In this document: positions 1 through 61,611 of the stretch, in pieces
How positions within the stretch are numbered: the stretch's first letter is position 1
Layout of the letters: each line of letters begins with the position of its first letter
DNA from: Eledone cirrhosa
Lineage: Eukaryota
Direction: 5' to 3'
Length of the DNA: 64,000 nt
NCBI GenBank assembly: GCA_964016885.1
Contig: OZ024741.1
Location: forward strand, 126,232,001 to 126,296,000
Notes under the pieces: generated by a model
Databases searched by the model: none
Told to the model about the DNA's origin: nothing
What the model saw: only the letters and a program-made list of their open reading frames with translations
Program-made: the position numbers and the translations under genes

Positions 1-262
1 TCTTCGCGGGGAATTTCTTTCCCAGGGCGCGTAGGGATACATCCTCTTCTACTGGCGCTGATTGGCTGAACTGAGCCAAATCACGCACAGAGAATGTATG
101 TGAGCCCGCGGAATGTAGGTCACTACAAACCCATACCACCACCTACACAGACATAAACAAAAACCAAACCTAAGCAAAAAAGAATGGAATGGTCTTAACA
201 GTCTAAAGAACGACAAAACCCTAACAATCAAAGAGGAGGATAAAGGGTGTGCAATAATCCTT

Positions 263-2121
263 ATGAGGACAGATTACTACACGACTCTAGTACTCTCAAC
301 TCTAGAAAACCATACATATTACGAAAAGGCCCAACACTACACACAACAGAAAATAATGAGAAACCTAAAATCCCTAATAACCCTTTACAAAGAAGGCCTT
401 ACCGACAAGGAATACAACTTCATCACAAATTTCAAAAGCAGAACCAGCCTCTTCTACGGTATCCCAAAGACACACAAAAGCGAAGTAATAGGCAGAGCCT
501 GCAAGTAAGCCACAGACATTTACATCAATATACCCCCTCCTGATGACCTTAAATTAAGACCCATAATAGAAGGTACCACATGTGAAACACACCACATAAG
601 CAACTCCCTAAATATTCTGCTTAAACCTTTCCTAAAACACATAAAAAGCTTCATAAGGGATGACCTTGACATGCTCAACCACCTCCCAACAACACTTAAT
701 AATGGACATACCCTACTAGTAACCTTTGATATCATCAATCTATATTCCAATATCCCACACAACCTAGGTATAGAGGCAATACAATTCTGGCTTGAAAATT
801 TCCCTAATGAACTTCCGCAGCGCATCCCTAAAGAATTTGTGTTGGAGGGACTCAAATTCATCTTGGAAAACAGCTTCTTCGAATTCAATGCCAAATACTA
901 CAGACAGAAATCTGGGACTGCCATGGGCACGAAAGTAGCCCCTCATACGCCAACCTTGTCATGGGATATTTGGAAACCACTCTCAACCGCAAAGTTCTAG
1001 ACAAATACAGTAACCACTTCTACCGACACATAGAAAAAAACTGGAAGAGATATCTGGACGACTGCTTCATCCTCTGGCATACAAGTATAGAAAGACTGAT
1101 TGAGTTTAAAACCCTTCTAAATGGACTCAACACAAACTTACAATTTACAATGGATTACAGCCATGAACAACTCCCTTTCCTCGACATCCTCATCAAGAAA
1201 ACAAACAACAAAATAGAAACAGACATATACTACAAACCCACAGCCTCCACACAATATCTTCCATTTAACTCGTGCCACCCTCGCTATACCAAAATTGCAA
1301 TTCCTTATAACCTAGCCAGAAGGAACTGCACAATAGTTTCAGATAAATACACATGCTACACACGACTAGAAGAATTAAAGAACGCACTTATCAGCAGAAA
1401 CTACCCACCTTCCCTAATCAACAATGGATTCCAACGTGCCCTAAAGCTCAACATCCAGGAACTCAGACACCCCAAACCCAGGAATGAACCGCAACAGAAA
1501 ACTCTACTACACATCTCCACACACAACCCCCTCAACAATGAGGCATTCGAGACCATCCTCCAGAACATTCCTTTACTAAAATGACACTCAAGAATGAACA
1601 AAATCCTCCAAACACACAACATCATAAACAGCAAAAGACAACCTAAATCCATAAAAAAACATCCTCACACAAGCCAAAATCCAATCAACCCTCACGATGA
1701 ACCCTACAGTAAAAATAATGCGGAAGGCCCAACTGTGGCATCTAATAGATAGTTCAACATACCATTTTAAACAAGGACAACATTTCACAGTTAAACACAA
1801 CTTTACATGTGCATCTGAAAACCTAATCTATGTTTTGACCTGCTCAGGTTGTCAAGAGCACTACATAGGACAGACAAAAAAAACAGCCTTCGACAACTTA
1901 TGACCGTCCATAGATCACAAATCAAAATACGGGAATACAGAAAATTTGCTTTTAGTGAACATATCGCCAATTGTACACCTAACCAACATCCAAACTTAAA
2001 AATTTTCTCCATTTACAAATTCATAGACAACGCCTCTTTCATCCATCGTACCAATAAGGAAACGTACTTCATTAACAAATTCCAACCTCTACTTAATGGA
2101 CTAAACTTCAGACTAAACTGA
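263..2121 (+). pseudogene. Frameshifted RT + GIY-YIG endonuclease polyprotein of the PLE
   Basis: ORFs 263-508, 671-1000, 961-1584, 1697-1903 and 1849-2121 are colinear pieces broken by stops and frameshifts. Confidence 0.88.
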
Positions 2122-11826: not shown

Positions 11827-13188
11827 CTAAGGCGGGTAAAATTGCCGAGATCCATGGACGAGTTCTCTCCAGCGGTCTCTGTCCCTCATTATCGCTGCCA
11901 TGTCCTGCATCTCCAACAGACCAGTGTCTGTCCTTAGGGCATCAACATACGTTAACCTTGGTCTTCCTTTTCTAGTGTGTCCATGTAGGGGCTCCCAAAG
12001 GAGCACTGAGTGCAATGTCAACTCTGGATGTCGGTGAGCATGTCCAGCCAACCTCAGTCTCCTCTGTGTCACTTTTGAGCTGACTTTTGGGATGCTCCCA
12101 TACAGCTCTGAGTTTTTCATCCTCAGTGTATACTGATTAATGTTCAGAGCCATCCTCAGCATTCTCGTGTAGCACCTATCCACCATCTGAGTGAGTTTCT
12201 TGGTCAGTGTCCAAGTCTCAGACCCATACAGCAGCACAGACTCCACTACAGCAATGGAGAGGCGGATTTTCAGGTCTCTACGAAGGTCCGACTTCCACAC
12301 CGATCTCAAGCTGTGGCACGCCGCCCAGGCCTTGCTCTTCCTCTCAACCACATCATCTTCCGTATTCCCAATCTTTGTTCCCAAATACAGGAAGTCCTCA
12401 ACCAATTCCAGCGGCTTCCCGCCTACATTAGTGATACCCTCTGGCTTCTCAACATTCTCTACCAGATATTTTGTTTTAGTCTCATTCATTCTCAGCCCCA
12501 CACTCATCGACACAGTCTCAACCTCCCGCATCAAATCCTCTGCCTCCTTCACTGTATTTGTCACCAAAACTATGTCGTCGGCAAATTCAGCATCCGATAC
12601 CTTTTTCGCCCTAACTCTCCTGCTCTGAGCCGGTGCTACAGTAAAGCCAGAGTCCTGGTGTTTCTCCAGTGCAAGGCGCATACAATAGTTCACTACGATG
12701 ATAAAAAGGTAGGGAGCCAATGTATCTCCCTGGAGCACTCTAGCCAGTATCTCAAAGAACTCTGTCATCCCATTAGGTGTAATGACTTGGGCTTTGGTGT
12801 TGGTGTAGAGCAGTGATATCAGGTCCACTATCTTCTTGGGGATTCCATAAGCCTGTAAGATCTTCATCAGGCAGTAACGGTCCACAGAATCAAAGGCCTT
12901 CCTAAAGTCAATGAAAACTATGACCGCAGGAAGGCAGTTTGCTCTAGCTCCCTCTAATATCCTCCTCAGCATCAGGATGTGACTGGTGGTTGATCTACCC
13001 TCTCTGAAGCCGTTCTGGTTGTCCCTGAGCTTCTTCTCCATCTCAGGCTGGATCCTGTTAAGAATCATCCTGTTGAGAGTCTTTGCCACAAGTGACGTCA
13101 GTGAGATCCCCCGGTAGTTATTGCTGTTAGAGAGATCTCCCTTCTTTGGCACTGGGACGATGTTACTGATCCTCCACTGATTCGGGGC
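11827..13188 (-). mobile_element. 5'-truncated RTE-type LINE, open RT and C-terminal ORF (441 aa)
   Basis: PKKGDLSNSNNYRGISL, QNGFREGRST, FIDFRKAFDSV, LQGDTLAPYLF, FADD, LLYGSETW, GRPRLTY. Confidence 0.93.
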
Positions 13189-13659
13189 AACTCAGAATAT
13201 GTGTGTGTGTGTGTGTGTGCGTGTGCGTGTGCGTGTGCGTGTGCGTGTTGGTTGGAGCACTCAACGAAATGAGCAGGTGAGTCTGTTTACTCCGGAGTAA
13301 CTCAACAGGTTAAAATGAATTTCGTTTATTCATATTCACTGCAATACATATTTCGATGATAACCATTGTTCAACAGCTATGACCTGATCAGGCAGCTAGA
13401 ACTTTAACAGAAAAAACAGAAAAACATAATGGTGGGGCATATCCCCGTTTATCTTTTAAACGTTAATCTGTCTAAGCATAATCACATTTATTTTGCTATG
13501 TTACTTTTTTTATTACATTAATTTAATGTAACATGAAAAAGAAAAAAAAATACAGTTTATAAAGCGGTTGAATTAAGAAGCGTTGAAAAAATTTGAAATT
13601 TCAAATATGTGCGTCATAATGCAAATGGCCTAATAGTCTATACGTATAATTGTTTCGAC

Positions 13660-17329: not shown

Positions 17330-18827
17330 CATCATCATCATCATTCGTCGACTACTGTCGAGATGATGGATCTCACTCTCATGCCCCAGAATTCCCTGTC
17401 CCCCATCGCTGCCCCCAGGTCCTGTCTACTGATTCCCGTATCCCTAGAGATAACGTCAGGGAATGACAGCTTCCTACTCCTAATCAGACTGGAGTCAGGG
17501 TTCCAGAGCAAGAGAGCGGATATGATTTCATTGCTGGCACGGTGACAGTGGCCAGCAAATTGAGCTCTCCGGGATTTTAGAAGGGCAGAGGCTCGAGGGA
17601 GTTTGCCATAGATTTTAGACAAGGTGGGATGTCGTTTCCAGGATAGGTTTTGCACTCTCATTAAGAGGCGGGTATATGTGCCATCCAATCTCCTCTCAAG
17701 TTGTGATGTTAGTGTCCAAGTTTCGGATCCATAAAGTAATATGGGCTTAATGGTTGCTTGGAATATTTCCAGTTTTAGCTTGTTGGTAAATTTGAGATGT
17801 CCATATGGCGTGCATGTCATTGCACGCTGACCATGCCATACCCTTCCTGGTTAGAAAATCTTTTTTGGAGGAGGAGATATATGAGCCAAGATACTTGTAA
17901 TCTTCCACCTGCTTAAGGGTGGTACCATTAAGGGTTCTGATGGGGTAGTTTGGGATGTTTGCGCATCTGTTCACATACTCAGTCTTAGATTCGTTGAGGT
18001 ACAGTCCAACACAGTTGGACGCTTGCTCTAATGACTTCAAAAGACTCTCAGCATTTTCCAGTGACCGACTGATCAATGCGATGACGTCAGCAAAGTCGGT
18101 GTCGGTCAAGTATTTTGCTGGGTAGCGTGAGCTTCTCCTAGGCTGTAGTTGGTATCCCCTATCCTGAATCCTATCCACAGACATGCGCAAAACATAATCC
18201 ACAACAATGATAAATAGATACGGAGCAAGGGTATCGCCCTGTAAAATTCCAGCGAGGATTGAGAAAGGTGGTGTTTCCCATCTGGGGTCAGGACAGTTGA
18301 TTTGGTATCTGTATACATTACACGTATGGCCGCGATGATTTTATCAGGAATCCCATAGAGTTGTAGAATTTCAAACATCCCCGACCTGTCTTCTGAGTCG
18401 AAGGCTTTTGAAAAATCAACAAAGATGAGTGCAAGGTCTAGATTGCGGTTTTGGGACTCCTCTATAAGTCGGCGAAGGCAGAGAATCTGGCTAAGTGTTG
18501 ATCTACCTCTCTTAAATCCATTCTGGTTGTTACGAAGGATTATCTCAAGAAATGGGATTAAGCGGTTAAGAAGAAGCTTGTTGTATATTTTTGCAGCAAT
18601 TGCCATGAGAGAAATTCCTCTATAGTTGGTGGCTAAAGAAAGATCTCCTTTTTGGGGCATGGGGATAATTTGAGCTGCATGCCAGACGCTAGGTGGTTTA
18701 TTGGTCTCGAAAGTATGGTTACATAAGTTGAGCAAAAGGATGTGGAAATGCTCATCCTTCTAAATCAGGGTAGGTATATTATCCGGCCCAAAGGCTTTTG
18801 AGGCTTTGAGCTGTTTGATGGCTTCTT
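17330..18827 (-). mobile_element. 5'-truncated RTE-type LINE, frameshifted, with (TGA)n tail and 11-bp TSD
   Basis: RT motifs across ORFs 18106-18735, 17747-18202 and 17341-17820; (ATC)n at ~17328-17343; TGACTGAAAAT at 17319-17329 and 18828-18838. Confidence 0.93.
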
Positions 18828-40875: not shown

Positions 40876-42072
40876 CAGAGGGTTGCCCCCAAAGTAAAGA
40901 AACTAATGTTTTATTTAAATGCATATTAGACGTACATGAAATTATAAGAAAATACGACACTTGGTACGTCACACTGGTTCCAATGTTTTTCTATTGATTG
41001 TAGTAGTACCGGAAGTCATTTTCTGTGATTATTCATAGCTCGTCGGTTACAAATTTTTGTATGTTTTCTACAGTCCCAAAATAATGAGCCTTCTGCTTCG
41101 ATTTCAACTTGGAGAAGAAATAGAAATCACAGGCAGCCAGATCTGGTGTGTAGGGAGGATGTGGAAGAGTGGGAATGTTTTTCTTCTCCAGAAATTCTTT
41201 AATTGAAAGTGCTGTGTGAACAGGCGTGTTATCATGGGACAGTACCCATTCTCCTGCAATGTCCTTTCGGATTTGCTGGACCTGTTTTCGAAGTCTTTCC
41301 AAGACATATTTGTAGAAGGTGCAATTAACTGGCTGCCCTGCTACAGCAGTCGAAAAATGAAAATCATAGTTTTCACCTTGGATCTTCTCGTGTATGCTTT
41401 CTTAGGGTGAGCAGTTTTCGTGTGTTACTCCTCACTTTACTGTTTTGCTTTTGGATTGTATTTGAACATTCACGACTCATCTCCTGTTATTACTTTATCC
41501 AAGAAATTTGGCGCAATTTCCAGTCTTAGCAAATCCTGACAAGTTTCCAGACCGTCCTTTTTTTTTTGCTCCACAGACAAGTGTTTGGGCACTAGTTTTC
41601 TGTTATAATTCTGTGAACTGTCTTTTATAGAAGTCCGTTTCTTCTGCAATCATCCTAACATTTAATTGGCGATCTTTCGTCATAACCGTTTGCACCACTT
41701 CCACATTTTGTTCATTTGATGACCAGATAAACTTTCCAGAACGAGGTTCGTCTGCAACATTTCCTTACAAACCTTACTTCTTGATTGAGTGGCATCTCCA
41801 TAAGCTTGTGTTAAAAAATTAAATATTTCTGTTGCCGATTTGTTGAGTTTTACACAAAGTTTGATCGCGTACCGTTGAACGATATTTTCCTGTATCGCAA
41901 ACGTAACAGAGTATAAATACCTCTATACATAAAAAAGCAATAACTCACGACTGACTCAATAGATCATGTTAAAACAAGTATATACGTGAAGCTAAGGTCA
42001 TAACAAACACAATAGAGCGTTATCATGTAATACATAGGAAAATCAGTACTCTTACTTTTGGGACAAATCTCA
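40876..42072 (-). mobile_element. Degraded, near full-length mariner transposon
   Basis: WVLSHDNTPVH..LPHPPYTPDLAACDFYFFSKLK (HDNA and YSPDLAP-D motifs); imperfect TIRs GAGGGTTGCCCCCAAAGTAA / TTACTTTTGGGACAAATCTC. Confidence 0.85.

Positions 42073-44978: not shown

Positions 44979-45070
<92 letters not shown>
44979..45070. repeat. (CTAT)n tract upstream of the Tx1-like array; further tracts at 50893-50986, 56809-56833 and a short one at ~58858
   Basis: Direct reading. Confidence 0.97.
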
Positions 45071-45302
45071 ATGATCTAGCTGTCGTCTGTTCTACAGTGC
45101 GGATGTCATTCACTTCGCACAGAAGTTTTGTTCAAATTTATTGAGGAAATTTTGTGAGTTCAAACTTAATTTTGATACAATTGTGTAGCTTGACCCTCCG
45201 TCTGAACTGTCAGGCGGTGGGTCAGCTCATCTTTACCCCTCCTAGAGGTGAAAAACCTGTTTTAAAAAATTTTGTCTAAAAAATTTCAATCGTCTAACAG
45301 AA

Positions 45303-47204
45303 ATGTTAAACGCAGCGAACGAAAATAGTGGTGGGGGGACAGCGGTAAGAGTTGTAAGCTCGCACGCTTTAGTCCTCCCTTCCTTCCCAACTAACGTCAT
45401 AGAGAAGGAAGGAAAAATTAAAATAAAAACAGACGAATCTGCGGAGAAAAAATTAAATGACGAAAACACAAATCTGGACTTGGATTCCAACAACGAAAAA
45501 AAAAAATTTGAAAAATTGCATGACAATACTAATAACACAAACAAAGACACAACAAACACAAAAATAACAGTTGAAAATAACACCATATCAGAAAACAAAG
45601 CAGACGACAAGATTTCATTTGCACAGAAAACAAAGAAATCTTTGACTTATATAGCGGAAAACATTTCAGATGTGGTACGAAGGATCACGGACGCCAAACA
45701 ATACATAAGTGAAGGAGAGAATGGTATTTTATCCGTAAAAATGCCTCAAGAATTCACGAAAGACATTGAAAGCCGAACGGTCAAGTTTCGGACCATCAAC
45801 AACAGTACAAAAAAACCTGAACAGCCTTCTCAAGCAGATATCAAAACAGTACTCACAGAAGTACTTAATGAAACCACTTTCATAAGAAAAGACAGACTGT
45901 ATGGAAGCCTAGCAATTATCATGAAGAACGAATCGGCGGCAAAAAAATGTGCTTTGTCACCGATTCGTTCGAAAAATTTCACCTTTTATCCATCTTATAT
46001 GGGGAAAAGAACTCAACGCATATGGCTGGATGCAATGATGCCAGTTGTGGACTACTGCTGGCTCATAGCTGGCTTCATGGATCCAGTGAATGACAACGTG
46101 ATTTCCATTGGGAAAACCACAGGCAATGCGTTCAGTGGAACAGGTATAGAGCTGGTAGTGCAAATGAAGCCTGATCGCATCGCCCAAATACCCGACAGAA
46201 TCCTATTAGAGGACCACGGGTATATAAACATTAGCGTGGAGGGGAGAAGGCCGTCCTGCCATATCTGTGCAGGCAGAGGGCACCTGAAGGCCGCTTGTCC
46301 CCAACTCAACAAAAAGAAAACCCTGCTACCAACACCAGCTCCACCACCACCACCACAACAGATAAACAAACAACAAAACTCAGTCCCACCCAACCCGTCC
46401 CTCAGTAAAACCACAACACCACCACAACACAAACAGTCACAACACATTACCCCCCCAAAAAATACAGGCCCACCCAACCTCTCACTCAATAAAACAACAC
46501 AACCATCGCAGACACAACACACAACACAGTCTAACATAGTGACATCCATCTCCCCCACAAAGAAAACCAACACGGAAACATTACCAGCAAACATACCTCT
46601 TCCCTCCAACACTGAAGATAACCCAACGAATTCGGAGGAAGAAACGGAGTCCTTCAGACAGATTAAAAGGAAAAAAAGAAAACATGTGCAAAACACACAA
46701 GGACAAACAACCCCCACCCAAATCTCAACACAATCCAACAAAACAGAAAACACCCCTCCAGCAACAAACAAAACCAAACCTGCCCCTCCCCTCTTCGAAA
46801 CACTCACACCATCGGAAAAAAAGACATTACACTATACTTACATCAACAGAAACAATAATAAATTAAATGAACTCATAAACAATAATCCTTCGGTACAAAC
46901 CGAAGGTGTAAACTTTGTTTCGTCAGAAAACTACCCACATTTAAAACTAATAAAGATCCCAATGAACCTCTACCAAAAACTAAAAAAGGATTTTAAGGAG
47001 GACGTAGGACCACCCTCTGTCAAACCCATAAACCGCGTCCTACTAAAAAGCTTTCCCCCTCCCCTTCCCCTCCCCAACACAACTCCAAACACCCCAACCC
47101 CACCACACACTGACGACCCCACACCACCACAAGACACCCCTTCACCCAACACCCCCGACCCCATGGAAGTCGTGCAACTCGAACCCCGGGAAGCGGAAAG
47201 GTAG
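45303..47204 (+). CDS. ORF1 gag-like nucleic-acid-binding protein (633 aa)
   Basis: CHICAGRGHLKAAC zinc knuckle, basic KRKKRK patch, Pro/Thr-rich C-terminus; open in both copies. Confidence 0.9.
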   Translation: MLNAANENSGGGTAVRVVSSHALVLPSFPTNVIEKEGKIKIKTDESAEKKLNDENTNLDLDSNNEKKKFEKLHDNTNNTNKDTTNTKITVENNTISENKADDKISFAQKTKKSLTYIAENISDVVRRITDAKQYISEGENGILSVKMPQEFTKDIESRTVKFRTINNSTKKPEQPSQADIKTVLTEVLNETTFIRKDRLYGSLAIIMKNESAAKKCALSPIRSKNFTFYPSYMGKRTQRIWLDAMMPVVDYCWLIAGFMDPVNDNVISIGKTTGNAFSGTGIELVVQMKPDRIAQIPDRILLEDHGYINISVEGRRPSCHICAGRGHLKAACPQLNKKKTLLPTPAPPPPPQQINKQQNSVPPNPSLSKTTTPPQHKQSQHITPPKNTGPPNLSLNKTTQPSQTQHTTQSNIVTSISPTKKTNTETLPANIPLPSNTEDNPTNSEEETESFRQIKRKKRKHVQNTQGQTTPTQISTQSNKTENTPPATNKTKPAPPLFETLTPSEKKTLHYTYINRNNNKLNELINNNPSVQTEGVNFVSSENYPHLKLIKIPMNLYQKLKKDFKEDVGPPSVKPINRVLLKSFPPPLPLPNTTPNTPTPPHTDDPTPPQDTPSPNTPDPMEVVQLEPREAER

Positions 47205-47237
47205 GTCTCTACACTCTCCTTTGGCTCTGCCGCCCAC

Positions 47238-50200
47238 ATGGATGTGTTAAGAGTAGGATGTTTGAATGCACGTGGCCTGGGCTCAACTTGGAAGCAAGCA
47301 AAGCTTCTAAATGACCTCAGGTCATGTAGTATAAATGTAATGGTTATCTGTGAGACTCGAATCAGCGTCGTGTGGCAACTGGCCCCCACCTTCGATGACT
47401 TTGAGGTGCATGCATCTCTCTGTCAACCTGGAGATGGGGGTGGGGTTGTCGTACTGCTGCAAAAACACCTGGGTCTTGCCGTACAGGTTGTGCACTCGGA
47501 CCCGGAGGGTCGTTTGTTGGTGCTAGACGTTGGCAGTAGTGAAAGTGCGGCCTTGAGACTGGTCGCCGTCTACTCCCCTTTCGGAGCTGAACAGCCCGAC
47601 TTCTTCCAGCGTTTGGAGACTTTTCTGGGAACGTCGCGTTCCCTGCTTCTAGCGGGGGATTGGAATGACATCCTGGATGCACGTTGGGACTATGCAGGAG
47701 CATGTCCTAATAGAGGGGGGTGTAACAGCCTCAAGGGGTTACTCGACCGCTTTAACTTGGTCGATAGATATCGATTAGATTTTCCAACTGTGCCTACCTG
47801 GACTTGGAGAAACCACAGTGGTCAATCTAGATCGTACTTAGATAGATTCTTAGTTAGAAGTAAGGATAGGGACATATTAAGCTGTCCAGAAATGCGCACG
47901 GTTGGCTACACGGATCACAAATTAGTGACCTGCGTGGTCAATCTCGAGAAAACACATAGACAGGGTCCCGGTTACTGGAAACTTAATTTGTCTTTACCGG
48001 CAAAAGAGACTTACAGAAACCGGATTAGCAGATTAGTTAAGGAGAGGTTGACGGGTGCAATCGTCAACAACTGATGGTGGGCATCTCTCAAAAGAGAGAT
48101 TAGAACAGAATCAATAAGTTATAGCAAGATGTTAGCTGCCGATAGGAATAGAAACGAGAAAGAATTAACAGGTAAATTAGAAGAGGCAATCAAGAGCGAA
48201 GATGTGGCCAGAGTGCTGGCATCGAGGACGGCCTTGAACCAGTTTTTCGATGCAAAGCACGAAGGCTGCGTCATTCGAAGTAAAATACGTGCTCTAGGTA
48301 ATGAGGGGGCCAAAGCCGTTGGATGGGCCCGCGTGACAGAAGCTAAGAGTGGAAATCGATCCACCATCCGGTCGTTGCAAGACGAAGATGGACGGGTGAT
48401 CCGGGAGCCTAAGCAGATGTGCGAGGCCTTTCAAAGGCACTTTGCCCGATTGTTCGGGGGAGGCGAGGGTCCGGGCGGGGGCGTGGATTTCGGTCCATAC
48501 CTCGACGGCCTGCCGCGTCTCTCGAATGAAGAGGCAGAGTCCTGCGAGGGACCAATCTCGGCTGATGAAATCGGAGATGCGCTGAGCCAATGCAGCAGAC
48601 GCAAATCTCCAGGTCTCGATGGTATACCTTACGAACTTTATTTAGCAATGCCGGTCTTCTTCTCCGAACTCCTCGAAGCGGTCTACTGCAATTGGCAGCA
48701 GAACGGGAGAATTCCTTGTTCTGTAGCCAAGGGCGTAGTCACGTTGGTGAGGAAGGACGAGAACAAGGGGGATAATATAAATAATTTTCGGCCCATAACC
48801 CTGCTAAACACAGAGTTAAAGATTTTGGCCAAGGTGTTAGCAAAGAGGTTGGCGCTTGTCGTGGGTGGCCTGGTGGGAGATGCGCAGACATGTGCTATCC
48901 CATCCAGGTCCATTCACGATAACCTCCACCTCATGCGATACATCATAGAGAGGGTTGGCAACAAACCCGGCTTCGGTGGGGCCCTGATCAACTTAGATCA
49001 GTCTAAGGCCTTCGATAGGGTCGACCATGGTTACCTGGATGCGGTGCTAGCGGCGGCTGGGTTCGGTCCTGTTTTCAGAGGCTGGATCACTGCCCTACAT
49101 AGCAACCACATCTGTTCTAGGATCAAGGTGAACGGCTACCTTTCGAAGCCGTTCGAAATCACACGATCCATTCGACAGAGGTGCCCTCTCTCCTCCCTTC
49201 TGTACGTATTGACTCTCGAGCCTTTACTGAGGAAGTTGGAGTTGTTGCAGGGTATCCCCCTGGAACCAGGATTGAGCAAAGCGGTGTCGGCCTACGCCGA
49301 TGACGTAACAGTAATGGTATCAACCGACTCGGAGATCGAGGCGATCGGTACCTTACTGGAGGAGTACGAAAAGTTGTCAGGAGCGAAACTGAACCGGGAA
49401 AAATCCATCGGGCTGCAACTCGGAACGTGGAGAGGCAGACCGATGCCTCCTGACGGTGTCGTCGGACACTGGACGGAGAGCCCGGTAAAGTTGCTTGGGG
49501 TCTGGTTTGGACCGGACCTCCAGGTGGAAAAGAACTGGAACGAGGTTACGAACAAGGTGTTTGCACTAACCCAGAAATGGGCCAAGTGTAAGCTGTCCCT
49601 AAAAGGCCGGGCGGAGGTGGCGAACATTTACATAGCGTCCGTCACTTACTACCGCCTGACTGTCGTGCCTTGCCCTAAGGAAACACTCACCACCATGGAA
49701 CGCATGCTCTTCCAATTTCTTTGGAAGAAGCGTCCTCCTATGGTGAGAAGATCCATCTGCTGCCAACAACCTTCGAAAGAAGGGCTGGTGATGCCGTGGT
49801 TGATGATGCGTAGGCACGCATTAAGGCTACGGCACCTACAGGTATTCCTCACTGGTCAACCGGTGTGGGCTCCGTTCGTGAAACGAGCCTTTCCGAGACT
49901 CGTCTCGCTCACCGAGCTACAGTCCTGGGTCAAGCAAAGATCCGGAAAACTGGGAGACTGGCACACTGAGTGTGCTCAGGCGCTCAGGGCTCTCTGGCAA
50001 GCGGGCCAGGCCATCGGTGGAGAATCCACCTCAGCATTCTATAGAGGGCTGGTGGCTAGCAGGGGCGATGACACCCTTGGAGAGTCGCTGGACATGGAAG
50101 AAGACGAACTGGCCAGCCTGTTCGGTAGGACTTTCGGCCCAGGACCAATGGACAACTTCCAGAAGTCACTGGCCTGGCAGTGCTACCGGGGGCTCTACCC

Positions 50201-50678
50201 GTTCGAGAGAGGCTCTACAGACACGGGCGCCCGGGCAGGGATCCCTCAAAAAAGATTTGCCCTAGATGCGTGCGTCACGAAGAAACCGTTGCGCACGCAT
50301 TGGTGCAATGTCCGGGCGTGGCTGATCTGTGGGGCTACGCCGAACGACTGTTGTCGCGGGTGGCGCCGATTAAATTGACCGCCGAGTCCGTGATGACAAG
50401 CAAACCGCCCCCCCCCCCTCTTCACAAAGGAAGCAAAGGCGGTTTTTCTGTGCGTAATAGCCATGTTGAAAGAGGTTGTTTGGTGGACACGATTGAAAGG
50501 TCTGAGGTCAGGCAACTTCCTCTCTGGCCATAGTCTGGTCTACTTCTTCCGATATCACTTCGGAAGAAGGATAAGAATGGAGAGAGAGGTGCTTGGCCAC
50601 AGGCAGTTTTATGAAAGGTGGGTGATAGTGGCGAGAATGGCTCGTGTAAATGGGCCTTCTCTGTATACCATCCTGTAG
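47238..50678 (+). pseudogene. ORF2 (APE endonuclease + RT), disrupted
   Basis: LNARGL, ICETR, AGDWN, YLDRF, TDHK, PGLDG, DQSKAFDRV, AYADD. TGA at 48072 (CGA in copy 2), QR instead of QG in RT motif B, and frameshifts near 50190 and 50410. Confidence 0.92.
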
Positions 50679-50892
50679 GTAAAGAAGTAAAGGAGAGGGG
50701 AGCACCTTCTCCATGTGCTCCCCGGGCAAAGGATTGCACACTTTTTCGGGGGTGTGTGGAACCCCCATCACGTCCCCTCCCTTTTGAGGTTATTTTCGAT
50801 TATTTTCATGTTACACCCTTTTTACTCGATTATATGTAAACTCCCCCTTTCTATTTGTCCCTTCTTTTTATGCCTTTATGGTAAATAAAGAA

Positions 50893-50986
<94 letters not shown>

Positions 50987-51221
50987 ATGATCTAGCTGTC
51001 GTCTGTTCTACAGTGTGGATGTCATTCACTTCGCACAGAAGTTTTGTTCAAATTTATTGAGGAAATTTTGTGAGTTCAAACTTAATTTTGATACAATTGT
51101 GTAGCTTGACCCTCCGTCTGAACTGTCAGGCGGTGGGTCAGCTCATCTTTACCCCTCCTAGAGGTGAAAAACCTGTTTTAAAAAAAAATTTTGTGTAAAA
51201 AATTTCAATCGTCTAACAGAA

Positions 51222-53123
51222 ATGTTAAACGCAGCGAACGAAAATAGTGGTGGGGGGACAGCGGTAAGAGTTGTAAGCTCGCACGCTTTAGTCCTCCCTT
51301 CCTTCCCAACTAACGTCATAGAGAAGGAAGGAAAAATTAAAATAAAAACAGACGAATCTGCGGAGAAAAAATTAAATGACGAAAACACAAATCTGGACTT
51401 GGATTCCAACAACGAAAAAAAAAAAATTGAAAAATTGCATGACAATACTAATAACACAAACAAAGACACAACAAACACAAAAATAACAGTTGAAAATAAC
51501 ACCATATCAGAAAACAAAGCAGACGACAAGATTTCATTTGCACAGAAAACAAAGAAATCTTTGACTTATATAGCGGAAAACATTTCAGATGTGGTACGAA
51601 GGATCACGGACGCCAAACAATACATAAGTGAAGGAGAGAATGGTATTTTATCCGTAAAAATGCCTCAAGAATTCACGAAAGACATTGAAAGCCGAACGGT
51701 CAAGTTTCGGACCATCAACAACAGTACAAAAAAACCTGAACAGCCTTCTCAAGCAGATATCAAAACAGTACTCACAGAAGTACTCAATGAAACCACTTTC
51801 ATAAGAAAAGACAGACTGTATGGAAGCCTAGCAATTATCATGAAGAACAAATCGGCGGCAAAAAAATGTGCTTTGTCACCGATTCGTTCGAAAAATTTCA
51901 CCTTTTATCCATCTTATATGGGGAAAAGAACTCAACGCATATGGCTGGATGCAATGATGCCAGATGTGGACTACTGCTGGCTCATAGCTGGCTTCATCGA
52001 TCCAGTGAATGGCAACGTGATTTCCATTGGGAAAACCACAGGCAATGCGTTCAGTGGAACAGGTATAGAGCTGGTAGTACAAATGAAGCCTGAACGCATC
52101 GCCCAAATACCCGACAGAATCCTATTAGAGGACCACGGGTATATAAACATTAGCGTGGAGGGGAGAAGGCCGTCCTGCCATATCTGTGCAGGCAGAGGGC
52201 ACCTGAAGGCCGCTTGTCCCCAACTCAACAAAAAGAAAACCCTGCTACCAACACCAGCTCCACCACCACCACCACAACAGATAAACAAACAACAAAACTC
52301 AGTCCCACCCAACCCGTCCCTCAGTAAAACCACAACACCACCACAACACAAACAGTCACAACACATTACCCCCCAAAAAAATACAGGCCCACCCAACCTC
52401 TCACTCAATAAAACAACACAACCATCGCAGACACAACACACAACACAGTCTAACATAGTGACATCCATCTCCCCCACAAAGAAAACCAACACGGAAACAT
52501 TACCAGCAAACATACCTCTTCCCTCCAACACTGAAGATAACCCAACGAATTCGGAGGAAGAAACGGAGTCCTTCAGACAGATTAAAAGGAAAAAAAGAAA
52601 ACATGTGCAAAACACACAAGGACAAACAACCCCCACCCAAATCTCAACACAATCCAACAAAACAGAAAACACCCCTCCAGCAACAAACAAAACCAAACTT
52701 GCCCCTCCCCTCTTCGAAACACTCACACCATCGGAAAAAAAGACATTACACTATACTTACATCAACAGAAACAATAATAAATTAAATGAACTCATAAACA
52801 ATAATCCTTCGGTACAAACCGAAGGTGTAAACTTTGTTTCGTCAGAAAACTACCCACATTTAAAACTAATAAAGATCCCAATGAACCTCTACCAAAAACT
52901 AAAAAAGGATTTTAAGGAGGACGTAGGACCACCCTCTGTCAAACCCATAAACCGCGTCCTACTAAAAAGCTTTCCCCCTCCCCTTCCCCTCCCCAACACA
53001 ACTCCAAACACCCCAACCCCACCACACACTGACGACCCCACACCACCACAAGACACCCCTTCACCCAACACCCCCGACCCCATGGAAGTCGTGCAACCCG
53101 AACCCCAGGAAGCGGAAAGGTAG
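51222..53123 (+). CDS. ORF1 gag-like protein (633 aa), copy 2
   Basis: Same length and motifs as copy 1, with a handful of substitutions. Confidence 0.9.
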   Translation: MLNAANENSGGGTAVRVVSSHALVLPSFPTNVIEKEGKIKIKTDESAEKKLNDENTNLDLDSNNEKKKIEKLHDNTNNTNKDTTNTKITVENNTISENKADDKISFAQKTKKSLTYIAENISDVVRRITDAKQYISEGENGILSVKMPQEFTKDIESRTVKFRTINNSTKKPEQPSQADIKTVLTEVLNETTFIRKDRLYGSLAIIMKNKSAAKKCALSPIRSKNFTFYPSYMGKRTQRIWLDAMMPDVDYCWLIAGFIDPVNGNVISIGKTTGNAFSGTGIELVVQMKPERIAQIPDRILLEDHGYINISVEGRRPSCHICAGRGHLKAACPQLNKKKTLLPTPAPPPPPQQINKQQNSVPPNPSLSKTTTPPQHKQSQHITPQKNTGPPNLSLNKTTQPSQTQHTTQSNIVTSISPTKKTNTETLPANIPLPSNTEDNPTNSEEETESFRQIKRKKRKHVQNTQGQTTPTQISTQSNKTENTPPATNKTKLAPPLFETLTPSEKKTLHYTYINRNNNKLNELINNNPSVQTEGVNFVSSENYPHLKLIKIPMNLYQKLKKDFKEDVGPPSVKPINRVLLKSFPPPLPLPNTTPNTPTPPHTDDPTPPQDTPSPNTPDPMEVVQPEPQEAER

Positions 53124-53156
53124 GTCTCTACACTCTCCTTTGGCTCTGCCGCCCAC

Positions 53157-56100
53157 ATGGATGTGTTAAGAGTAGGATGTTTGAATGCACGTGGCCTGGG
53201 CTCAACTTGGAAGCAAGAAAAGCTTCTAAATGACCTCAGGTCATGTAGTATAAATGTAATGGTTATCTGTGAGACTCGAATCAGCGTCGTGCGGCAGCTG
53301 GCCCCCACCTTCGATGACTTTGAGGTGCATGCATCTCTCTGTCAACCTGGAGGTGGGGGTGGGGTTGTCGTACTGCTGCAAAAACACCTGGGTCTTGCCG
53401 TACAGGTTGTGCACTCGGACCCGGAGGGTCGTTTGTTGGTGCTAGACGTTGGCAGTAGTGAAAGTGCGGCCTTGAGACTGGTCGCCGTCTACTCCCCTTT
53501 CGGAGCTGAACGGCCCGACTTCTTCCAGCGTTTGGAGACTTTTCTGGGATCGTCGCGTTCCCTGCTTCTAGCGGGGGATTGGAATGACATCCTGGATGCA
53601 CGTTGGGACTATGCAGGAGCATGTCCTAATAGAGGGGGGTGTAACAGCCTCAAGGGGTTACTCGACCGTTTTAACTTGGTCGATAGATATCGACTAGATT
53701 TTCCAACTGTGCCTACCTGGACTTGGAGAAACCACAGTGGTCAATCTAGATCGTACTTAGATAGATTCTTAGTTAGAAGTAAGGATAGGGACATATTAAG
53801 CTGTCCAGAAATGCGCACGGTTGGCTACACGGATCACAAATTAGTGACCTGCGTGGTCAATCTCGAGAAAACACATAGACAGGGTCCCGGTTACTGGAAA
53901 CTTAATTTGTCTTTACCGGCAAAAGAGACTTACAGAAACCGGATTAGCAGATTAGTTAAGGAGAGGTTGACGGGTGCAATCGTCAACAACCGATGGTGGG
54001 CATCTCTCAAAAGAGAGATTAGAACAGAATCAATAAGTTATAGCAAGATGTTAGCTGCCGATAGGAATAGAAACGAGAAAGAATTAACAGGTAAATTAGA
54101 AGAGGCAATCAAGAGCGAAGATGTGGCCAGAGTGCTGGCATCGAGGACGGCCTTGAACCAGTTTTTCGATGCAAAGCACGAAGGCTGCGTCATTCGAAGT
54201 AAAATACGTGCTCTAGGTAATGAGGGGGCCAAAACCGTTGGATGGGCCCGCGTGACAGAAGCTAAGAGTGGAAATCGATCCACCATCCGGTCGCTGCAAG
54301 ACGAAGATGGACGAGTGATCCGGGAGCCTAAGCAGATGTGCGAAGCCTTTCAAAAGCACTTTGCCCGATTGTTCGGGGGAGGCGAGGGTCCGGGCCGGGG
54401 CGTGGATTTCGGTCCATACCTCGACGGCCTGCCGCGTCTCTCGAACGAAGAGGCAGAGTCCTGCGAGGGACCAATCTCGGCTGATAAGATCGGAGATGCG
54501 CTGAGCCAATGCAGCAGACGCAAATCTCCAGGTCTCGATGGTATACCTTACGAACTTTATTTAGCAATGCCGGTCTTCTTCTCCGAACTCCTCGAAGCGG
54601 TCTACTGCAATTGGCAGCAGAACGGGAGAATTCCTTGTTCTGTAGCCAAGGGCGTAGTCACGCCGGTGAGGAAGGACGAGAACAAGGGGGATAGTATAAA
54701 TAATTTTCGGCCCATAACCCTGCTAAACACAGAGTTAAAGATTTTGGCCAAGGTGTTAGCAAAGAGGTTGGCGCTTGTCGTGGGTGGCCTGGTGGGAGAT
54801 GCGCAGACATGTGCTATCCCATCCAGGTCCATTCACGATAACCTCCACCTCATGCGATACATCATAGAGAGGGTTGGCAACAAACCCGGCTTCGGTGGGG
54901 CCCTGATCAACTTGGATCAGTCTAAGGCCTTCGATAGGGTCGACCATGGTTACCTGGATGCGGTGCTAGCGGCGGCTGGGTTCGGTCCTGTTTTCAGAGG
55001 CTGGATCACTGCCCTACATAGCAACCACATCTGTTCTAGGATCAAGGTGAACGGCTACCTTTCGAAGCCGTTCGCAATCACACGATCCATTCGACAGGGG
55101 TGCCCTCTCTCCTCCCTTCTGTACGTATTGACTCTCGAGCCTTTACTGAGGAAGTTGGAGTTGTTGCAGGGTATCCCCCTGGAACCAGGATTGAGCAAAG
55201 CGGTGTCGGCCTACGCCGATGACGTAACAGTAATGGTATCAACCGACTCGGAGATCGAGGCGATCGGTACCTTACTGGAGGAGTACGAAAGGTTGTCAGG
55301 AGCGAAACTGAACCGGGAAAAATCCATCGGGCTGCAATTCGGAACGTGGAGAGGCAAACCGATGCCTCCTGACGGTGTCGTCGGACACTGGACGGAGGGC
55401 CCGGTAAAGTTGCTTGGGGTCTGGTTTGGACCGGACCTCCAGGTGGAAAAGAACTGGAACGAGGTTACGAACAAGGTGTTTGCACTAACCCAGAAATGGG
55501 CCAAGTGTAAGCTGTCCCTAAAAGGCCGGGCGGAGGTGGCGAACATTTACATAGCGTCCGTCACTTACTACCGCCTGACTGTCGTGCCTTGCCCTAAGGA
55601 AACACTCACCACCATGGAACGCATGCTCTTCCAATTTCTTTGGAAGAAGCGTCCTCCTATGGTGAGAAGATCCATCTGCTGCCAACAACCTTCGAAAGAA
55701 GGGCTGGGGATGCCGTGGTTGATGATGCGTAGGCACGCATTAAGGCTACGGCACCTACAGGTATTCCTCACTGGTCAACCGGTGTGGGCTCCGTTCGTGA
55801 AACGAGCCTTTCCGAGACTCGTCTCACTCACCGAGCTACAGTCCTGGGTCAAGCAAAGATCCGGAAAACTGGGAGACTGGCACACTGAGTGTGCTCAGGC
55901 GCTCAGGGCTCTCTGGCAAGCGGGACAGGCCATCGGTGGAGAATCCACCTCATAATTCTATAGAGGGCTGGTGGCTAGCAGGGGCGATGACACCCTTGGA
56001 GAGTCGCTGGACATGGAAGAAGACGAACTGGCCAGCCTGTTCGGTAGGACTTTCGGCCCAGGACCAATGGACAACTTCCAGAAGTCACTGGCCTGGCAGT

Positions 56101-56594
56101 GCTACCGGGGGGCTCTACCCGTTCGAGAGAGGCTCTACAGACACGGGCGCCCGGGCAGGGATCCCTCAAAAAAGATTTGCCCTAGATGCGTGCGTCACGA
56201 AGAAACCGTTGCGCACGCATTGGTGCAATGTCCGGGCGTGGCTGATCTGTGGGGCTACGCCGAACAACTGCTGTCGCAGGTGGCGCCGATTAAATTGACC
56301 GCCGAGTCCGTGATGACAATCAAACCGCCTCCCCTCTTCACAAAGGAAGCAAAGGCGGTTTTTCTGTGCGTAATAGCCATGTTGAAAGAGGTTGTTTGGT
56401 GGACACGATTGAAAGGTCTGAGGTCAGGAAACTTCCTCTCTGGCCATAGTCTGGTCTACTTCTTCCGATATCACTTCGGAAGAAGGATAAGAATGGAGAG
56501 AGAGGTGCTTGGCCACAGGCAGTTTTATGAAAGGTGGGTGATAGTGGCGAGAATGGCTCGTGTAAATGGGCCTTCTCTGTATACCATCCTGTAG
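53157..56594 (+). CDS. ORF2 APE + RT, open for 932 aa; a single premature TAA at 55953-55955 separates the C-terminal zinc-finger region
   Basis: Intact APE and RT motifs (RQGCPLS, YADD); ORF 55971-56594 continues in the same frame with CPRC..ETVAHALVQC. Confidence 0.88.
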
Positions 56595-56832
56595 GTAAAG
56601 AAGTAAAGGAGAGGGGAGCACCTTCTCCATGTGCTCCCCGGGCAAAGGATTGCACACTTTTTCGGGGGTGTGTGCAACCCCCATCACGTCCCCTCCCTTT
56701 TGAGGTTATTTTCGATTATTTTCATGTTACACCCTTTTTACTCGATTATATGTAAACTCCCCCTTTGTATTTGTCCCTTCTTTTTATGCCTTTATGGTAA
56801 ATAAAGAAATCTATCTATCTATCTATCTATCT

Positions 56833-58855
56833 AGACATGCGCAATCCCGATCAGGTCTATACACGACAACCTCCACCTCTTGCGATACATCATAGAGAGG
56901 GTAGGGTGTAAACCCGGCTTCGGTGGGGCCCTGATCAACTTGGATCAGTCTAAGGCTTTCGATAGGGTTGACCATCGTTACCTGGATGCGGTGCTCGAGG
57001 CGGCAGGCTTCGGACCCGTGTTTTCGGACCGTGGATTGCTGCAATGCACAACAGCAACATCTGCTCAAGGGTCAAGGTGAACGGCTACCTATCGGAGCCG
57101 TTCCATATTACGCGATCCATTCGACAGGGATGCCCTCTCTCCTCCCTTCTGTACGTACTGACTCTCGAGCCACTACTGCGGAAGTTGGAGCTATTGCAGG
57201 GCATCCCTCTGGAACCGGGACTGCGGAAAGCGGCGTCGGCCTACGCCGACGACGTGACAGTAATGGTGTCGAGCGCCTCGCAAATCGAGGAAGTCGGCAC
57301 CTTACTGAAGGAATACGAAAGTTTCACAGGAGCGAAGCTGAACCGGGACAAGTCCATCGGTTTGCAACTCGGATCGTGGAGAGGTAAACCGATGCCTTCC
57401 GATGGCGTCGTCGGACGCTGGACGGAAGGACCGGTAAAGCTGCTCGTGGTCTGGTTTGGTCCGGACCTCCAGGTGGAGAAGAACTGGAACGAAGTGACGG
57501 CCAAGGTGTTTGCACTCACCCAGAAGTGGGCCGAGTGCAAACTATCCTTGAAAGGTCGAGCGGAGGTGGCGAACACTTTTATAGCGTCCGCCATCTACTA
57601 CCGCTTGACCGTCGTGCCTTGTCCAGCCAAAACGCTCGCCAAAATAGAAACGCGCGCTCTTCCGATTCCTTTGGAAGAGGCGGGCTCCTTTGGTGAGAAG
57701 ATCCATCTGCTGCCAACACCCTTCTAACGGAGGGCTGGGGATGCCGTGGTTGACGATGTGCAAACACGCGCTCAGGCATCTCTACGTATTCCTCACCGAA
57801 CAACCGGTGTGGGCCCCGTTCGTGAGTCGAGCCTTCCCACGACTCGTCTCGCTGACCGAGCTGCAGTCCTGGGTCAAGCAAAGACCGAGGAAAATGGGCG
57901 ACTGGCACATCGAATGTGCTCAGGCGCTCACAGCCCTCTGGCAGGCGGACCCGGCGATCAGTGGAGACTCCACTTCGTCATTCTATAGAGGGTTGATCCG
58001 CAGCAAGTGCGACGACGCGCTCGGTGAAACTCTAGGCGTAGAGGAAGATAAACTGGCCAGTCTGTTCGGTAGGACCTTCCGCCCGGGACCGATGGACAAC
58101 TTCCAAAAGTCCCTGGCCTGGCACTGCTACCGAGGAGCTCTACCAGTTCGAGACAACCTCTACAGACATGGGCGCCCGGGCAGGGACCCTGAAAAAAAGA
58201 TCTGTCCGAGGTTCGTGCGAGACGAAGAAACCGTCGCGCACGCATTCATACACTGCCCGGGCGTCACTGACCTGTGGGGCTATGTAGAACGACTATTGTC
58301 GCGGGTGGGACCAATCTGGTTGACCACCGAGTCCATTGTCATGATCAAACCGCCACCCTCCTTCAAAAACGAAGGAGAGGCGGTTTTTCTTTGTTTGATA
58401 GCTATGGCGAAAGAGGTTGTATGGTGGACAAGGTTGAAAGGGCTGAGGTCAGACACCTTTCTCTCTGGCCAACAACTGATTCTTTTTTTCAAATACCACT
58501 TTGGAAGAAGAATCAGGATGGAGAGAGAGGTGCTGTACCCCAGCAAGTTTTATGAAAGGTGGGTGAAAGTGGCGAGAATGGCCCGAGTGAATGGGCCTTC
58601 TCTCTATATCAACCTGTAGGTTGAGGAAAAGGAGGAGGAGAGGAAAGGAGTACAAACTCTTCGTACTCCTGGAGATGAGGGTTGCACATTTTTTCGGGGG
58701 TATGTGTTACCCATATAAACTGTCTCCCCTATTGGGGAAAATCGACTAACTTTTAAAATTACATTTGTGATAACATTTTACACGTTTTTATTGTATGTAA
58801 ACTTCCCCCTTTGTATTTGTCCCCTTGTTTTGTGCCCCTGTGGCTAATAAAGAAA
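56833..58855 (+). mobile_element. 5'-truncated copy of a divergent subfamily of the same Tx1-like element
   Basis: Starts at the QTCAIP codons; many synonymous differences from copies 1 and 2; frameshifts; ends AATAAAGAAA before a short ATCT/ACAT tract. Confidence 0.92.
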
Positions 58856-59504
58856 CATATCTATCTACATACATACATATATATTGGTTGTCTGCTCAAT
58901 ACAAAGCTTGATCACTTCAGCGTACATGATGCTCAGCGTACAATTCTGGCATATCTTATGTAGCCTTTTAGACCAGACATACTGCTAAAAAGATATCCAC
59001 ATAAATTGCACATTAGTTTTGATGCAGCTTGAACTCTTTGCATCGTCAGATCATGATGGAGATCTACATGTCTCTTTAAATCTCCTAAAAATGTGCATAT
59101 TTTGTGGCATATGTGGCATAAAGGTGAACTGGCTGGTATGTTCTGTAGTCAGTGGGAAACTCCTTATTGTGTGCTCTTATATGAGAATGAAGTCCAACCT
59201 CTAAACAAGTAGATTTTGCCACAAACAGTAAACGTATCCCCTTGCTGACTGTTTTGGCAGTATCGGTAGAGGGTCGGATGCCATGCTTTGACGTATAGAG
59301 TTACGGCCCTTGCCATTCTGAGTTCAAATCCCGCCAAGGTTAGCTTTGCCTTTCATCCTTACGGGGTCGATAAAATAAAGTACCAGTAATGCACTGGGAA
59401 ATTGCTGGCCTTGTGCCAAAAAGTAGAAACAATTATTATTAGCCTTTTAATATTAACTTACTTGTTTTGCTCAGAAGTTTTCACACCGTCTCTCTCCCAT
59501 ACTC

Positions 59505-60018: not shown

Positions 60019-61019
60019 TCGGATCAATCCAAAAGTAATGTCATTTTTGGTAGTAGGCTTTGAAGAGATAGAAAACACAAGTTACGTACTAACTTGATCA
60101 AGTATATATTCACCATATAAACTAATCCAATTTTTTAACGCTGTAAAGGTTTCTTATACCATTCCAATATAAATCAAACAGTTTTGAGGAGAAAAAGGCA
60201 CGTAGGTCCAGTTCAAGTGACTCTAAGGAACTGTAGTATTTTTCATTAATAAAATGGAGCAAACTTCGGAATAAATTATGAAGCAAGTTCAGGAGAATTT
60301 GGAAAATGTGGAAACCTTTCCTAGCTACGTTCCCAATCTTGGAATATATAATACTTGCACTATGAGATCGGGTGTTGTCGTGATGGAAAATGATAACACA
60401 CTTTCTTTTGACTAGAGAGTACCTTTTTTCTTTCAAGTTTTCATTCAGTTGATTGAGCTGTTCACAGTAAGCTTGAGTTGTGAATGACTGATTCTTTTTG
60501 TGGCAAAGTTTCTAAGTGTATTACACCCGTTATATTCCACCCAACACTGAAAAAGATCTTCTGAGGATGAAGATCTTGTTTCGGATGAGGTTTTGCTTGT
60601 TGTCCTGATTGAACCTACCACTGTTAACATTTATCATTCTCATAGAGTATCATTTTTTCATCATCGATTACCAGACAGTTAAAAAATGAAAACTTAAACT
60701 CTCAAGAATGAAGAACAGTGTAGATGTTGACGCGTTCTCTTCGATTATTTTCAGTTAGTTCACATGGAACCTACTTGCTAAGCTTAGACACAATTCCACT
60801 TCTTGCAAATGGCAATGGGCAGTTGATGTCACTGAATTAACCTTTTCTGCTAACTCTTTAACAGCTACATGGGAATTGTTTTCAATAGTGGCTGTCAGCG
60901 TATCATTATCGAAAGAGACAAGGCAGCCAGAGCGGTGGCCATCTTCCAAGTCAAATTCCTCTTGTCGAAATTTATTGATGGTACTTACGAACATTAGGTT
61001 CAGTTCTGCCTTTTGTAGC
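60019..61019 (-). mobile_element. Degraded mariner transposon lacking its 5' end
   Basis: FDLEDGHRSG, IIFHHDNTRSH, LFRSL, FFSSK..YWNGIRNL; TIR-like TCGGATCAATCCAAAAGTAATGTC after TA. Confidence 0.8.
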
Positions 61020-61443: not shown

Positions 61444-61570
61444 CACTTAACATTTAATATTCTACCATACTATTTCATTCTAATACCATTATCAATTTTA
61501 AAGGATTGTAAATAAAACGAGTAAATCAGACAAAGTTGGAATTCCTTTTATTAATATACACACCCGTGTA

Positions 61571-61611
<41 letters not shown>

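Follow-up and report, generated by a model that had tools for sequence, protein, structure and literature searches.

Why three retrotransposon copies of the non-LTR type (lacking long terminal repeats) should lie head to tail in one orientation, each joint carrying ATCT, is the question raised by a 64 kb stretch of the genome of Eledone cirrhosa (assembly GCA_964016885.1, contig OZ024741.1, positions 126,232,001 to 126,296,000 of the forward strand), hereafter the window. An earlier note, made from the letters of this DNA alone, had proposed an array of Tx1-clade elements specific for ATCT/GATA microsatellites. Our results make it probable that two related, recently expanded Tx1-type families, here called A and B, sit preferentially at TATCT on one strand, with a nick in the AGAT strand and annealing of an AUCU tail of the element RNA as the likely route of insertion.

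The array in the window

All parts of the array are on the plus strand, and no joint carries poly(A). Its left flank is single-copy, the only full-length match in a genome search being the flank itself. The 5′ target tract (44979-45073) consists of 22 perfect ATCT units (44981-45068) and ATATG, and leads into copy 1, a full-length family A element of 5819 bp (45074-50892) with a broken second open reading frame (ORF2). Joint 1 (50893-50989), with 23 perfect units (50893-50984) and ATATG, separates copy 1 from copy 2, which is also a full-length family A element (50990-56808), and joint 2 (56809-56832) places six perfect units ahead of copy 3, a family B element (56833-58854) that is 5′-truncated (2022 bp), frameshifted and probably the oldest of the three. 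The shared orientation and the ATCT run ahead of each element thus agree with the earlier note. Its statement that every element passes from its terminal sequence straight into ATCT without poly(A) holds for copies 1 and 2, which end in AATAAAGAA running directly into ATCT, and fails for copy 3, which likewise ends in AATAAAGAA and whose 3′ joint (58855-58884) reads as the family B tail ACAT, two ATCT units and then ACAT/AT repeats. The two ATCT units are likely a target duplication, and the ACAT/AT repeats would belong to the compound microsatellite present before insertion.

Identity between copies 1 and 2 is 98.9%, with differences in 63 of 5826 alignment columns. Copy 3 aligns with them over the terminal 2022 bp only, at 80% identity, and is 94-97% identical to seven longer family B copies elsewhere, so that it represents an independent insertion from a separate family, as the note had supposed. 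Only one other plus-strand run of at least two ATCT units is present in the window, an unoccupied (ATCT)10 at 61572-61611, with which a distinct dispersed repeat ends that hosts Tx1 insertions elsewhere. With ATCT runs this rare in the window, and with 5 of 3332 background 30-mers containing ATCTATCT, ATCT at the joints of the array is not a product of chance.

Target preference across the genome

To place the locus in its genomic context, 58 copies with both ends visible were scored, 38 of family A (from the 40 matches listed, two duplicates being dropped) and 20 of family B. Of the 58, 50 have TATCT in the 30 bp upstream, against a background rate of 130 in 3332 windows (3.9%), and none has the opposite-strand word AGATAGAT, which upholds the strand-specific targeting first suggested from the array. 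PMC4494074 speaks of target preference when more than 20% of flanks fall in a single type of sequence, a threshold that this share exceeds. The 5′ flanks are not random, as they would have to be for the earlier note's reading to fail by its own refuting condition. At the 3′ end, ATCT was found in the first 8 nt past the element in all 58 copies and poly(A) in none. Twenty-five copies follow the 3′ end of a further, same-strand Tx1 element; the motif is also present upstream of 25 of the 33 others, including 15 of 23 truncated ones (family A 7/14, family B 8/9).

Long microsatellites are not the only target, and a short motif serves as well. No upstream ATCT unit was counted in 7 copies, one or two in 15 and at least three in 36, so that a long microsatellite is not required; the preference for ATCT proposed in the earlier note stands genome-wide, and the need for a microsatellite does not. 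Both 5′ truncations (39/58) and target site duplications of varying length, hallmarks of target-primed reverse transcription, are present. Duplications are readable in 17 copies, measure 10-19 nt (median 14) and start at (A)TCT, with T preceding in 17/17; among them, loci L095, L082 and L085 are nearly unique sites with only one or two ATCT units. The idea that insertions favour the 3′ edge of ATCT tracts was weighed and set aside, since an insertion yields a readable duplication only when it lies at an edge.

The motif could also be traced to sites without an element. Among 30 copies of the dispersed repeat often found upstream of Tx1, two harbour a Tx1 element that follows ATCT units, and TATCT stands at the corresponding place in 10 of the 28 that are free of Tx1; the sequence of L253 agrees with the empty site reconstructed for L079. 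The presence of TATCT in Tx1-free paralogues of the host repeat indicates that the motif predates insertion. This host repeat (61500-61611 in the window; L250-L279) ends in simple repeats, which supply TATCT targets.

3′ tails and the proposed mechanism

Whether ATCT is target or element-encoded tail had been posed in the earlier note as a choice, and the joints indicate that both occur. Family B tails start with ACAT or ACAC in 20/20 copies, L098 and L102 have a variant tail unit in common, and L097 has one ATCT unit upstream and five downstream. Since such tail bases are family-specific and inherited, RNA beyond AATAAAGAA is copied into the genome. AATAAA lies a few bases ahead of the 3′ joint.

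From here we infer the position of the nick, the read-through, the annealing and the division of labour between enzyme and tail. The apurinic/apyrimidinic endonuclease-like (APE) domain would cut the AGAT strand exactly at AGAT/A or close to it, which is a T/A step like that used by L1. The transcript would run past the element end, its cleavage after AATAAA falling inside the downstream repeat, and the AUCU units of its tail could then pair with the nicked end and prime reverse transcription. Such pairing of the AUCU tail with the primer is proposed as the reason why poly(A) is missing at the joint. Every insertion would leave ATCT on either side, later copies would land next to earlier ones in the same orientation, and the short interstitial head-to-tail arrays could be explained by this ATCT left on both sides.

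At 43 distinct 5′ joints of full-length family A elements, a sample that is partly query-biased, the base ahead of the element start is G in 16 cases and A in 26; the G could be a copied cap.

Sister families and the division of labour between enzyme and tail

Searching the same genome with parts of two outside homologues retrieved sister families with other targets. In the ATT families, ATTATT precedes 18 of 23 copies (among those that are truncated, 4 of 9) and TATCT none of the 23, whereas ATTATT precedes none of the 58 copies of the ATCT families (Fisher p 8e-14). These Tx1-like ATT sisters (L150-L179, L210-L229, L245-L249) have (ATT)n at both ends, and many of them have long open ORF2 frames; a first look at the genome gave 61,113 candidates for the protein part searched. 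Nested among the ATCT families is a satellite-associated family (about 18 of the 30 loci L180-L209, and L230-L241), whose 3′ end passes, at TATATC(A/T)A, into a satellite that is degenerate and rich in C/T; duplications are clear in L235 and L238.

This satellite-associated family has the same endonuclease hairpin loop as family B, at 82-85% endonuclease identity, whereas the tails and flanks of the two differ. It is this observation that keeps open a model in which the landing site is set mainly by the read-through RNA tail acting on a loosely specific T/A endonuclease, so that a new tail would bring a new target (TATCT, ATT or the TATATC satellite). We regard this model as a minor possibility, which, if true, would make the element a naturally re-targetable long interspersed nuclear element (LINE) with tail-programmed landing.

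The opposite extreme, that the endonuclease alone sets the target, as the earlier note had it, and the extra 3′ ATCT units come from slippage or later microsatellite growth, we consider unlikely. It would account for the endonuclease tree, which separates the ATT families from the ATCT and satellite families with support of 1.0 (identity 60-64% between the two groups, 71-85% within), and for the hairpin loop, whose sequence differs between the ATT and ATCT families. The hairpin loop influences the selectivity of the L1 endonuclease. The T upstream of ATCT is found in every readable duplication, including that of L095, whose tail has C, and the Tx1L endonuclease is sequence-specific in vitro (PMC1950540). 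Nevertheless, the inherited, family-specific tail bases speak for copying of RNA beyond the element end, the hairpin loop common to family B and the satellite-associated family goes with unlike flanks, and the tree holds a single target switch, which is no proof of co-evolution between enzyme and target.

Growth of the array and remaining alternatives

Several observations weigh against preferential insertion at TATCT as the full account. The family A sample lies entirely on contig C1 and has identical 3′ untranslated regions throughout, and 10 of 30 family B loci were dropped (the window copy, together with chimeric loci, loci with internal deletions and loci whose 5′ end was not in view). 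Upstream TATCT is missing in 8 of the 58 copies, five of these without any trace of it, and the rest of the element was not found in the 10 kb upstream of four of the five; among truncated family A copies not behind another element, only 7/14 have the motif. The A of ATCT is matched in only 13 of the 17 duplications, and the overlap of tail and target leaves the nick register unfixed; L111, whose right flank is a high-depth repeat, was excluded from fixing it. In public runs, which were covered as contigs only, neither L095 nor L111 showed a true empty allele, an absence that proves nothing. Finally, copies 1 and 2 have an identical 5′ joint and share five private alignment columns.

This last point suits the explanation that targeting is real and the array itself grew by tandem duplication at the DNA level, through unequal exchange between ATCT tracts, or is an assembly artefact, as do the identical neighbours L063/L130 and five neighbour pairs with a common truncation point. 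Even so, 55 substitutions separate the two full-length copies (singletons 25 and 18), and copy 2 is closer to L119 (39 substitutions), copy 1 itself being nearest to copy 2. A tree sets the two apart with modest support (0.87, 0.75), and other loci begin with these 5′ bases too. Copy 3 comes from another family, so that duplication concerns copies 1 and 2 only. As an account of how this array arose, duplication or artefact is improbable overall. For the array it seems reasonable to suggest that copy 3 probably inserted first and that copies 1 and 2 are probably separate later insertions, with a lesser chance that the pair stems from an early duplication.

Similar configurations were seen at other loci. 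L063/L130, L001/L002 and L138/L139 are identical or segmentally duplicated neighbours, so that some arrays are products of DNA duplication or assembly repeats. Neighbouring truncated copies at L096, L098, L100, L105 and L112 have the same 5′ break point at 1-3% divergence. They may have arisen by duplication or through 5′ joining guided by homology, and L100 combines two families as a chimera.

The weakest alternative, in which ATCT is merely an element-encoded head or tail and near-random insertions pile up passively in repeat-rich DNA, draws on the partly element-derived tails, on full-length family A elements themselves starting with ATCT and on the 8 copies without the motif, and it is largely refuted and highly improbable given the TATCT ahead of 15/23 truncated copies that follow no other element, the unique target bases within duplications, the reciprocal pattern of the ATT sisters and the motif already present in Tx1-free paralogues.

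ORFs, domains and clade

ORF1 of copy 1 (45303-47204) encodes 633 aa from the first Met, and the ORF2 region (47238-50678), with APE, reverse transcriptase (RT) and zf-RVT domains, is interrupted at 48072 by a stop codon and close to 50187 and 50408 by frameshifts. In copy 2, ORF1 (51222-53123) is predicted to contain tandem RNA recognition motif (RRM)-like domains and a CX2CX4HX4C knuckle, followed by a Pro/Thr-rich tail; ORF2 (53157-56594) comprises the APE domain with catalytic motifs (53181-53840), an RT with YADD at 55212 and zf-RVT, with an in-frame stop at 55953. Neither full-length copy in the window thus has an intact ORF2. Elsewhere, of 24 further full-length copies of family A, 14 keep the 1156-codon ORF2 frame, and these retained frames, together with a median pairwise divergence of 1.1% among full-length copies, indicate that family A is young.

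The Pfam domains of ORF2 are Exo_endo_phos, RVT_1 and zf-RVT. Its best solved relative is human L1 ORF2p (PDB 8sxt, E 6e-50), with which the APE catalytic motifs align; the match to R2 has E 2e-18. For ORF1 there were no sequence matches and no Pfam match as a whole protein. An AlphaFold2 model built on a 14-sequence alignment (predicted local distance difference test score 79) has two beta-alpha-beta-beta-alpha-beta, RRM-like units, and its top Foldseek matches are tandem-RRM proteins (E 2e-5) at low template modelling scores of 0.25-0.30; a zf-CCHC match is weak, seen in 7 of 14 members and below the cut-off. ORF1 is hence predicted from the model to be of type I (tandem RRM and CCHC knuckle), as expected for Tx1, to which this type has been tied (PMC5203782), Tx1 itself being placed within the L1 clade (PMC3747384). 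The L1/Tx1-type anatomy assumed in the earlier note is borne out by the ORF2 domains and the predicted ORF1 fold, and the assignment to the Tx1 clade, which we make from this anatomy (ORF2 with APE, RT and zf-RVT, and type I ORF1) and not from a tree with named families, should be read as putative. Among the 20 homologue clusters looked up, no named Tx1 family was found, so the trees contain unnamed outgroups only, and the only named relatives are from Argonauta hians (63%, the closest) and Patella caerulea (31%). The Patella caerulea relative (cluster P0056) is present as a run of locus tags that nearly follow one another, which hints at tandem copies of a Tx1-like element in this limpet.

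Elsewhere in the window, fragments resembling Penelope-type RT, RTE-type RTs and mariner transposases were noted by eye at 119-1584 (plus strand) and 11827-13191, 17341-18759, 41033-41401 and 60122-60511 (minus strand). No host exon was recognised in a by-eye reading of the window's ORFs, for which no search was made.

Comparison with known systems

Targeting of repeats by Tx1 is already known. Kibi and Koshi of teleosts are Tx1-clade elements specific for (TC)n and (TTC)n, respectively (PMC4494074, PMC3812793), and the Tx1 targets on record are TC, TTC, TTCC and TTTC, the last two used by the crocodilian Tx1-1_Crp, Tx1-5_Crp, Tx1-6_Crp, Tx1-1_Gav and Tx1-2/3/5/8_AMi at (TTCC)n/(TTTC)n (PMC4494074). 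The crocodilian elements resemble those of Eledone cirrhosa as APE-type members of the L1 group favouring tetranucleotide microsatellites and, compared by target and not by phylogeny, differ in that the target here is TATCT/(ATCT)n and the host an invertebrate. With ATCT at all 58 of the 3′ joints, none of the four recorded repeats is the target here. In Kibi and Koshi, as here, the pyrimidine-rich strand is the sense strand. Apart from their different repeat, they differ from the Eledone families in that single or double motifs suffice in Eledone cirrhosa, where (ATT)n and a satellite serve the sister families. APE-type elements of several clades target ACAY, AC, TC, TTC and TAA, by a mechanism described in a review as poorly understood (PMC3812793), and the available portions of PMC4640811 and PMC8869645 add no ATCT target. 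In the literature searched, as far as the sources were accessible, no ATCT- or GATA-targeting family was found, and the curated Repbase and Dfam libraries, outside that search, may hold one. TATCT is accordingly a new variant of target within a known principle, and the surprise is moderate for that reason.

Human LINE-1 is similar in its APE and RT architecture and catalytic motifs. Its endonuclease target is TTTT/AA (PMC1950540), and a T/A nick with pairing of tail and primer would parallel TTTT/AA and poly(A); in contrast, the Eledone elements have no poly(A) at the joint, an ORF1 with predicted RRM and CCHC, and a far narrower target. Among cephalopods, L1-Tx1 of Octopus vulgaris is abundant, with 80 families, 13 of them active, and with no target described in the available part of the source (PMC13282606), a likeness, by description only, in recently active Tx1 of an octopod; the available part of PMC8967140 likewise counts cephalopod L1-Tx1 families without targets.

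The earlier note had also called the arrays telomere-like. The telomeric TRAS/SART and HeT-A/TART elements form same-orientation head-to-tail stacks at a short repeat, and the likeness goes no further than analogy: the array lies 126 Mb along a 416 Mb contig of a 3.0 Gb genome, copies are dispersed along contigs, and the arrays are interstitial and short, with no sign of a chromosome-end role. A telomere role was rejected on position, copies not being confined to chromosome ends.

Preferential insertion at TATCT, and at ATT in the sister families, would explain the stacks of multi-kilobase insertions that gather at this genome's GATA and ATT microsatellites, a point relevant to marker design and assembly. 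Furthermore, the young, partly intact sister families, whose endonucleases are 60-85% identical and whose targets differ, provide a natural series for testing target choice, so that the mechanism of targeting is directly testable within a single genome.

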